64,000 nucleotides of DNA from assembly GCF_013122565.1 (NCBI RefSeq), contig NZ_CP053258.1. One strand, written 5' to 3'. The position numbers were made by a program. Positions 55,901-58,900 of the stretch are shown here, one piece after another (the first letter of the stretch is position 1; every line of letters begins with the position of its first letter). The DNA is from Escherichia coli (GTDB lineage: Bacteria; Pseudomonadota; Gammaproteobacteria; Enterobacterales; Enterobacteriaceae).

Positions 55901-58900
55901 GCAGCACGCAAGGAGACGCATCATGAAGCAGCTTGAAAAGTTGATTATCGAGGCCAAAATTCTCACCGAACCAGAGGCTGAAGTCGAGCGGGTGATGCAT
56001 GTGTGTAACGCATGTCGCTATTGCGAAGGATTTTGCGCCGTGTTCCCGGCAATGACTCAACGACTGGAATTTGGCAAAGCCGACATTAACTATCTGGCAA
56101 ATCTGTGCCATAACTGCGGCGCTTGCCTACACGCCTGCCAGTATGCTCCCCCCCATGAGTTTGGGATCAACGTGCCGAAAGCAATGGCAGAGGTACGTCT
56201 GGAAACTTATCAACAGTACGCGCAACCGGCGGTCTTCGGGGCGCTGTATCGCCGGGCTGGCGTCACCGTGACGCTGGCACTGGTCTTAAGTATGTTCCTC
56301 TTTTTACTCCTGGCGATGGGGCTGAAGGGATCGCTGCTCCACCCACCGCTGGCCGGTGATTTCTACCAAATCTTCCCGCACAACCTGCTGGCCTGGATGT
56401 TTGGATCGGTATTCATTCTGGCTATTGGTTTACTGATGGTAGGGGTGATCCGCTTCTGGCGCGAGATTTCTCCCGTCGGGCCGCGCCCAGCGGAAATTGC
56501 CGAAGCGTCGAGCAACGCGCTAACGCTAAAATATCTTGACGGCGGACATGGCAAAGGGTGCAACGAAGCGGACGATGCTTTCACATTGATGCGTCGTCGT
56601 TTCCACCATTTCACCTTCTACGGCTTTATGCTCTGTTTCGCCGCGACCATGGTGGCGACGGGTTACCACTACTTTGCTAGTTGGGAAGCCCCCTACCCAT
56701 TCTTCAGTGTGCCGGTCATGCTTGGCACGTTAGGAGGAGTCGGTTTAATCGTAGGCCCGGCAGGCCTGCTGTGGTTAAACCTTAAGCGCTCGCCACTGCA
56801 TGGCGATGCGCGACAGAAACCGATGGATCGGGGATTTATTTTACTACTGCTCCTGACCAGCCTCACCGGTTTAGGTTTGCTGGTGGGAAGAGATACCTCA
56901 TGGATGGGGATCCTGCTTGCCATCCATCTTGGCGTGGTCATGGCGCTTTTTTTAACAATTCCGTACGGAAAATTTGCCCACGGATTTTACCGCTGCGCGT
57001 CTTTACTCAAATGGGCGATCGAGAAGCGACGTGGAAAACAGGCGGGGGTCGCAAGCGACTGACCCGCACACTCTTACCTCTATACATAATTATGATAAGG
57101 CAATGGAGCAACCTCAATGACTCAACAACCATCGCGTACCGGCACGTTCGGCGCAATACTCCGTGTTACCAGCGGTAATTTTCTCGAACAGTTCGATTTT
57201 TTCCTGTTTGGTTTTTACGCTACTTATATCGCAAAGACGTTTTTTCCTGCCGAAAGTGAGTTTGCCGCATTAATGCTTACTTTTGCCGTTTTTGGCTCCG
57301 GCTTTTTAATGCGCCCTATCGGGGCCGTGGTATTGGGTGCATATATCGACAGAATTGGGCGACGGAAAGGGCTGATGGTTACCCTGGCGATTATGGGCTG
57401 CGGCACGATGCTCATCGCCCTCGTTCCGGGTTATCAGACTATCGGCCTGCTGGCCCCTGTACTGGTCCTGGTGGGGCGTCTGCTACAGGGATTTTCTGCT
57501 GGAGTCGAACTGGGCGGCGTCTCTGTTTATCTTTCTGAGATCGCCACACCAGGCAATAAAGGCTTTTATACCAGTTGGCAATCGGCCAGCCAGCAGGTGG
57601 CGATTGTGGTCGCCGCGCTGATCGGGTACGGTCTGAATGCCACGCTGGGACACGATGAAATCTCCGAATGGGGTTGGCGAATACCGTTCTTCATTGGCTG
57701 CATGATTATTCCGCTGATTTTTGTTCTGCGACGTTCGCTTCAGGAAACTGAAACCTTTTTACAGCGTAAACACCGTCCGGACACCCGGGAAATTTTTACC
57801 ACCATTGCTAAAAACTGGCGTATTATCACTGCGGGAACCCTGCTGGTGGCGATGACGACCACGACATTTTATTTTATTACCGTCTATACCCCCACTTACG
57901 GGAGAACGGTGTTGAACCTGAGCGCACGTGATAGTCTGATCGTCACTATGCTGGTAGGGATTTCTAACTTTATATGGCTGCCGATTGGCGGCGCGATCTC
58001 TGACCGGATTGGGCGTCTCCCGGTGCTAATGGGCATCACCTTACTCGCCATCGTCACCACCTGGCCGGTGATGCACTGGCTTACCGCTGCACCTGACGTC
58101 ACCCGCATGACACTGGTGCTGCTCTGGTTCTCGTTCTTTTTTGGGATGTATAACGGTGCAATGGTAGCAGCCCTGACAGAAGTGATGCCGGTTTATGTCC
58201 GAACCGTGGGTTTTTCGCTGGCCTTTAGTCTCGCCACGGCGATTTTCGGCGGCCTGACACCAGCCATCTCCACTGCATTGGTCCAGTTGACAGGCGATAA
58301 AAGTTCTCCTGGATGGTGGCTAATGTGCGCTGCGCTGTGCGGGCTCGCCGCGACGACAATACTGTTTGCTCGTCTCAGTAGTGGTTATCAGACAGTAAAA
58401 AATAAGCTCTGAAACGCAAGCAGGCAGAGATATATGTCTGCCTGCTTTCTCCAGTGCGCCGTAAACCGTGGGCAGCGTGGCACGGGAGTTACGTCACCGG
58501 GCTCTATGCCAACAGTTCAGTGAGTTCGCCGGCGCATCGATGGCTGGTTATGCCAGCAATGTTCAGAGGGAAGAATATTCGTGTGATCATAGCTTGCTTA
58601 TTCCTTGCCTGGGTTAAATTTTCAGACGGCTCAATCCATAAAACCGGTGACTGGGATTAACGTAAGTACGCCCTCTTTCCATCAACACTTCAGGCAGCTT
58701 GCGGGAATGAGTCCACTCCGGTATCAGAAATGACTATGCCTCAGAAGACAGGCGACTAACGATGTCACCACAGCAGCCTATACTGTCGGTTACGAAAGCT
58801 TATCCCATTTCAGTCGGGAATATTCGCGGATGTTTGGAGAGTCACCTAAGAGAGATATTGCCAGATTAAGAAAGTCTGTCGATCAGCTTTAATAAACCCT

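Follow-up and report, generated by a model that had tools for sequence, protein, structure and literature searches.

The locus between hipA and the F9 operon

The window analysed here is a 64-kb stretch of Escherichia coli DNA in which hipA is followed by dif, about 100 bp of conserved dif flank, a 14.7-kb island, an 87-bp filler, the remnant of an AraC-type regulator gene and the F9 fimbrial operon (Table 1). dif is the site of chromosome dimer resolution. Its perfect copy indicates that the window spans the replication terminus, and the cumulative GC skew peaks at approximately 42-44 kb, that is, at dif. In K-12, dif is located between hipA and yneL (bioRxiv 10.1101/2025.09.02.673814). The F9 operon (59327-63653), which encodes the major subunit, chaperone, and usher, is intact in the window; it is disrupted by IS3 in the nearest relatives, VE-T9 and CP52E, and mostly deleted by IS1 in ET201.

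Table 1. Features between hipA and the F9 operon (positions in the 64-kb window)
Feature	Position	Strand	Remarks
hipA	42360..43688	+	Left conserved neighbour of dif and yneL; ORF, alignment, annotation
dif, perfect 28 bp	43763..43790	+	Made up of a XerC arm, a central region and a XerD arm; exact match where chance predicts 0
Conserved dif flank	43791..43889	+	Common to ST131-type E. coli, Enterobacter vonholyi and Citrobacter youngae
Strain-specific island (the "mosaic segment")	43890..58577	.	ORF map; annotation of near-identical strains
Terminator-like hairpin and T-run	58420..58449	+	Just past the tcuC stop codon
Junction filler, 87 bp	58578..58664	+	Between the tcu module tail and the remnant; plasmid modules match only to 58577
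yneL pseudogene remnant	58665..58892	+	Codons 224-304 and native TAA stop; Pfam, tblastn, DNA alignments, annotation of near-identical strains
In-frame TGA	58731..58733	+	TGG (Trp246) to TGA nonsense substitution in the helix joining the two HTH motifs
Scrambled stretch	58743..58760	+	Flanked by two deletions, one of 2 bp (after 58743) and one of 16 bp (about 58758-58760)
F9 (ydeQRST-type) major subunit gene	59327..59889	+	Right conserved neighbour of the remnant

Because of the conserved flank, the start of the island is not flush with dif. The island carries an autotransporter gene (44148-47735, minus strand), a 386-aa ORF, an IS3 scrap, genes for an MFS transporter, a cellulase-family glycosyl hydrolase and a LacI-type regulator, and tcuR-tcuA-tcuB-tcuC (53509-58412, plus strand). 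A tcuRABC module approximately 93% identical to that of the window, including 165 bp of its 3' tail, is present on large E. coli plasmids (NZ_CP122649.1; 59 plasmid matches), where it lies beside IS26/ISNCY, and plasmid carriage is a plausible route by which the island cargo moves. Since the tail is shared with these plasmids, the island-derived sequence runs to the last base that they match. Read-through from tcuC into the remnant is unlikely because of the terminator-like hairpin that follows the gene. The junction of the window type was found in 6 of 5426 complete E. coli genomes and in a seventh, ET201, where it is eroded by IS1.

The filler gave no significant match to the ancestral genes, the orthologous loci or the other haplotypes, except for a marginal stretch of 21 bp (58589-58609) that agrees with the K-12-type junction at 18 of 21 bases and scores 15, against a maximum of 14 among shuffles. 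After this stretch comes the heptamer GTTAAAT (58613-58619), which has the same sequence as the outer end of the dif XerD arm; aligned with gaps, dif gives no significant match at this place.

Like the integrative mobile elements exploiting Xer (IMEX; CTXphi and the gonococcal genetic island), the island adjoins dif. Unlike them, it has about 100 bp of conserved flank between itself and dif, no second dif-like site at its far end and, the IS3 scrap excepted, no phage or mobilisation genes. The first two of these differences led us to reject the island as an Xer-integrated element. The only dif-like site in the window is dif itself, and a gapped search at the right junction performed no better than shuffles.

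Extent and lesions of the yneL remnant

The conceptual translation of the remnant scores 50.5 bits with Pfam HTH_18 (cut-off 33.6; E=2.6e-13) and 36.6 bits with HTH_AraC (cut-off 26.6; E=4.7e-9), and the AraC-type remnant is therefore real, far beyond chance. A tblastn search with a 304-aa homologue aligned residues 221-304 to positions 58656-58889 (E=4e-30). K-12 yneL (b1506, 203 bp; between ydeT and hipA), likewise a 5'-truncated AraC-type pseudogene, aligns locally with 58707-58892. The two agree in locus and in orientation relative to their neighbours, each lying between hipA/dif and the F9 (ydeT...ydeQ) operon, with the island added in the window; the distance from dif to yneL is about 200 bp in K-12 versus about 14.9 kb in the window. 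According to our sequence comparisons, the remnant is the allele of yneL, an E. coli pseudogene, that this strain carries, and a first, sequence-only reading of the window, which had proposed a yneL-like remnant of an AraC-family HTH protein, is confirmed by Pfam, by tblastn, and by the alignment to b1506.

The feature itself is already known: yneL is an annotated pseudogene and annotation pipelines flag this allele. In the near-identical strains VE-T9 and CP52E, it is recorded as a "helix-turn-helix domain-containing protein" pseudogene ("internal stop; missing N-terminus"), and in a near-identical strain the NCBI pipeline calls the equivalent pseudogene at 58656-58892. The only other AraC-type match in the window is a separate, apparently intact small MarA-like gene of the family (12406-12693, minus strand).

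The remnant was read on the plus strand, in the frame counted from 58602. Firm homology at the DNA level begins at 58665 in comparisons with the O157, K-12, Klebsiella-like and E. coli accessory copies, and we placed the 5' boundary there and not at 58690, where the remnant had initially been thought to begin. An extension to codon 216 was tried and rejected, because identity with the O157 allele and the orthologues over 58642-58664 is only 39-57% and cannot be told apart from chance; this end of the filler bears only marginal similarity to yneL codons 216-223. The proposal that the truncation point falls at the right edge of the mosaic segment stands, since the true point (58664/58665) coincides with the end of the strain-specific island.

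Within these limits HTH2 is whole, HTH1 is represented by its recognition helix, and the linker helix is damaged; the start codon is absent. The bipartite AraC/XylS domain is incomplete: it spans residues ~196-294 of the intact homologue, of which the window retains only what lies within residues 224-304, helices one and two of the domain being gone and the linker having lost six codons. AraC_N (PF06719), found in the intact homologue with E=1.1e-44, is lacking from the remnant, and tblastn with the 304-aa homologue matched neither AraC_N nor the first 220 residues in any frame of the 64-kb window. The N-terminal domain is thus missing, just as the sequence-only reading had stated.

The full-length homologue aligns over residues ~196-294 with solved DNA-binding domains (3mn2, 3oio, AraC 2k9s, MarA 1bl0, RamA 7bef). 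Compared with these AraC-family structures, the remnant is without helices 1-2 and its helix 4 is broken. In the MarA register, with the helices numbered as in MarA, the window keeps helix 3 onward, and 2 of the 7 domain helices are missing. With helices 1-2 absent and helix 4 broken, a two-HTH fold would be impossible even if the remnant were translated.

It had also been claimed that only the second HTH survives, preceded immediately by an in-frame stop. The TGA is real. It is however neither the edge of the remnant nor the truncation point, but a substitution of Trp246: homology extends 66 bp upstream of it, and the frame there reads ...STPSFHQHFRQLAGMSPLRYQK up to the stop, which is the recognition helix of the first HTH. 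Codon 246 is TGG in the O157, K-12, and S-type alleles (haplotypes described below) and in all six full-length homologues. Since the TGA replaces a conserved Trp codon and the HTH1 recognition helix persists upstream, the stop is a secondary mutation. No ORF with a start codon covers the remnant, which is interrupted by the TGA and has no in-frame start between the TGA and the HTH.

Two deletions in the scrambled stretch had been overlooked. They were placed by gapped alignment against the O157, K-12, Klebsiella-like (L008) and E. coli accessory (L010) sequences, and together remove 18 bp, that is, six codons of the linker helix, the frame being restored at 58761. The changes specific to the window allele comprise 1 synonymous versus 5 non-synonymous and 1 nonsense, whereas those common to the window and O157 alleles number 8 synonymous versus 2 non-synonymous, and functional homologues differ by 204 synonymous versus 65 non-synonymous codons. 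This fits neutral change in the window allele and constraint on the shared and homologue changes, weakly so because the numbers are small (~7 changes).

Intact homologues and the other E. coli haplotypes

A first protein search for homologues returned short fragments only. Full-length homologues were reached through the contig of a 128-aa database match, a DNA search, and a scan of species-representative genomes. On the Klebsiella-like contig behind the 128-aa match (L008), the regulator gene is complete except for one nonsense codon. The DNA search retrieved an intact accessory copy from E. coli (WP_000622442.1; YY76-1, 9001-9915 of the locus), whose 304-aa product has AraC_N (PF06719) at residues 31-182 and HTH_18 at residues 217-291. 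The scan yielded intact genes in Citrobacter youngae, Enterobacter vonholyi, Enterobacter sp. MGH24, and Klebsiella michiganensis, with 93-96% protein identity to the accessory E. coli copy.

The intact AraC_N + HTH_18 regulators of C. youngae, E. vonholyi and MGH24 and WP_000622442.1 are approximately 84-88% identical to the remnant in DNA over the part that it retains. They have what the remnant has lost: the complete 304 codons, the sensing domain with both HTH motifs, and a divergent alpha/beta-hydrolase gene. dif lies upstream in the same orientation, at 2.6 kb in C. youngae, 4.4 kb in E. vonholyi, 1.4 kb in Enterobacter MGH24 and about 5 kb in the Klebsiella-like loci, and the interval holds the divergent alpha/beta-hydrolase gene, sometimes together with DUF2255 and Fe-ADH genes. 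The position of dif and the 84-88% identity indicate that these dif-adjacent genes are the positional orthologues of the ancestor of yneL. Alignment to intact orthologues from other Enterobacteriaceae, which had been suggested as a means of locating the breakpoint, sets it at codon 224 in the window.

The accessory copy is carried by E. coli YY76-1 and 97 other genomes, along with the alpha/beta-hydrolase gene and a truncated Fe-ADH gene. Its site is a prophage-like island beside intS/tRNA-Arg, unlike that of the dif-side yneL. Some E. coli therefore carry a dead yneL and a live xenologue. In Enterobacter vonholyi, the 3' end of the regulator gene occurs once more about 1.9 kb downstream of the intact gene, as a 114-bp copy (locus 9757-9870) with 83-87% identity to the E. 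coli remnants.

The 3' part of the remnant is present in ~4040-4204 of 5426 complete E. coli genomes (~75%), with different sequences between dif and the remnant. In the O157 haplotype, the start of DUF2255 and 20 mid-hydrolase codons precede a remnant that begins at codon 216 (400 genomes, S-type included). In the S-type (STN0717-11), a 7.8-kb LysR...CMD cluster is followed by the O157-type scraps, again with codon 216; the hydrolase-scrap/codon-216 junction is identical in the two types. In the K-12 haplotype (3037 genomes), the DUF2255 start and a spacer from downstream of the hydrolase gene lead to codon 236 of a remnant that carries a 1-bp frameshift as well, as opposed to the codon-224 cut, the Trp246 stop and the 18-bp loss of the window allele. 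The ST131 haplotype consists of the dif flank and ~320 bp of unique sequence, the remnant being absent. The window haplotype, with dif flank, island and filler ahead of codon 224, is that of the 6 genomes and the IS1-eroded one mentioned above. The endpoints 216, 224, and 236 are nested and fall within 20 codons.

The fillers are colinear with the ancestral locus. In the O157 and S-types the series runs from dif through the DUF2255 start and hydrolase codons 226-245 to yneL codon 216; in the K-12 type it runs from dif through the DUF2255 start and the hydrolase-downstream spacer to yneL codon 236. Compared with Enterobacter, the O157 type has a deletion of ~1.48 kb, its hydrolase scrap being joined straight to codon 216. 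Colinear scraps of ancestral neighbour genes between dif and the remnant identify these junctions as deletion scars, not insertions, and since the K-12 type keeps a piece absent from the O157 type and vice versa, both descend from a longer ancestor. No hydrolase, DUF2255 or Fe-ADH scraps were found in the window, and its dif flank is no longer present in the K-12 and O157 types; the window is therefore not descended from either haplotype.

Two further observations concern gene models at this locus. In some E. coli strains, small deletions between short repeats yield ORFs of 120-139 aa running from the dif-flank spacer (MRSDFPVVV...) into the HTH remnant, and gene callers consequently report them as real regulators. 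In E. coli O157:H7 G5295, hipA is annotated as an N-terminally truncated pseudogene (locus 4597-5706) and the adjoining autotransporter gene is frameshifted.

Probable order of events and possible function

From the identity, extent and lesions of the remnant, its orthologues and the alternative junctions shown above, we infer the following order of events. The ancestor would have been an intact gene situated a few kb on the downstream side of dif, with transcription leading away from that site, and divergent from the alpha/beta-hydrolase gene. In the Escherichia lineage, to judge from the junction shared by the S- and O157-types, a deletion of ~1.5 kb would have joined yneL codon 216 to a point midway in the hydrolase gene. 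Promoter and start codon would have gone with it, as would AraC_N and the two leading helices of the DNA-binding domain. Later erosion would have been independent in each lineage. The K-12 type may have been cut further, at codon 236, and acquired its 1-bp frameshift, and the ST131 type may have lost the whole remnant. In the window lineage, the 14.7-kb tcu/autotransporter island would have replaced everything between the dif flank and codon 224, namely the spacer or ancestral cluster and eight more codons of an already truncated gene, and the change of Trp246 to a stop and the 18-bp loss would have come afterwards. The nested endpoints fit this course of one old truncation at 216 followed by lineage-specific erosion.

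We therefore regard the remnant as the non-functional 3' quarter of yneL, truncated before the island arrived and left as a neutral scar at an unstable spot beside dif (probability about 0.8, a value given jointly to this account and to the view that the remnant encodes nothing). The use of the result lies in a corrected reading of the locus: the stop is secondary, the intact ancestor is found beside dif, and the truncation most likely predates the island, which is most likely not its cause.

The sequence-only reading had instead let the island be inserted into, or recombine within, an intact AraC-type gene, which would have been truncated at codon 224 in that event. We consider such a direct hit improbable, if the best of the other explanations. 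The island-side sequence does stop exactly where the yneL homology starts, no hydrolase or DUF2255 scraps occur in the window, and the ancestral dif flank kept there and absent from the K-12 and O157 types points to an independent lineage; as the window does not derive from those haplotypes, an intact gene might, in principle, have been what the island replaced. However, insertion as the cause is not supported as stated, because island-free E. coli are truncated too, at nearby nested points (codon 216 in 400 genomes and codon 236 in 3037) with deletion scars, and independent hits on a gene of 304 codons should be scattered more widely than over 20 codons. The S-type, another haplotype with genes between dif and yneL, is already truncated at codon 216, and the substitutions specific to the window allele look neutral. 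These points favour a truncation that preceded the island.

That the remnant has been kept for a function, be it through a small HTH peptide or by serving the downstream F9 promoter as a cis element or spacer, appears very unlikely. Its 3' part does persist in about three quarters of the complete E. coli genomes, the ORFs of 120-139 aa fuse upstream junk to the HTH remnant in some strains, and a microarray signal for K-12 yneL has been reported (PMC9308461), so that the region may be transcribed. The same PeerJ survey describes variable "YneL" gene models across strains (PMC9308461), and read-through or mis-annotation fits the signal and the models better than function. Against a function, the window allele has no in-frame start codon and carries both the nonsense codon and the 18-bp loss, the K-12 allele is frameshifted, ST131-type strains without the remnant still have F9 and its upstream region, ET201 has lost the 3' half of the remnant to IS1, and the substitutions look neutral. 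A K-12 deletion that includes yneL caused no growth defect in one assay in the literature. No known RNA family matched across 43500-59500.

A recent pseudogene, complete and restorable by a single correction, would agree with the internal stop and small deletions, but it can practically be dismissed: tblastn finds nothing upstream of codon 221, with the N-terminal 220 residues unmatched in every frame of the 64-kb window, so that no frameshift can explain the state of the gene or rescue an upstream frame, and the immediate upstream sequence is the tcuC tail that plasmids carry as well. The gene is thus truncated, by the very check that had been proposed for telling the two apart.

Possible cassette turnover beside dif

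In E. coli STN0717-11, the 7.8-kb metabolic cluster (locus 9966-17762) has a perfect dif on one side and, on the other, a relic that still resembles dif but is degenerate and riddled with insertions, GGTGC[TGAA]G[T]C[A]ATtATGTATAT[...]AT[A]GTTAAAT. The score of its gapped alignment was reached by 1 of 500 shuffles; positions 3534-3592 of the Klebsiella-like contig (L008) belong to the same observation. The cluster encodes LysR, a glutamine amidotransferase-like protein, aldo/keto reductases, an amidohydrolase, an ABM monooxygenase and CMD. The O157/K-12 arrangement equals the STN0717-11 haplotype minus exactly the segment from dif to the relic, which could reflect an Xer-type event of old date, integration or excision, or else a deletion through microhomology. 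In GCA_977996295.1, in a Klebsiella-like context, the regulator is independently truncated at codon 246 (5139-5465), 117 bp from a dif site (26/28), and the called ORF translates dif as ...NVYYVK....

Given the STN0717-11 arrangement and this truncation in another genus 117 bp from dif, cassette turnover at dif could drive repeated erosion of yneL. We put forward only tentatively, as a rather doubtful reading, that the yneL scar marks a hotspot of dif-linked cassette gain and loss, perhaps through Xer-mediated or dif-templated recombination of non-phage DNA. If it does, the repeated erosion of the yneL regulator across Enterobacteriaceae would be driven by dif-linked cassette turnover. The locus is in any case a compact example of a dif flank that gathers nested deletions and replacements while dif itself stays perfect.

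A metagenome scaffold holds one more form of the gene: an ORF (543-965) that joins ~60 residues resembling the N-terminus of CitF (citrate lyase alpha subunit) to yneL codons 227-304 without a change of frame. Its breakpoint is again an independent one and falls in the same short region.
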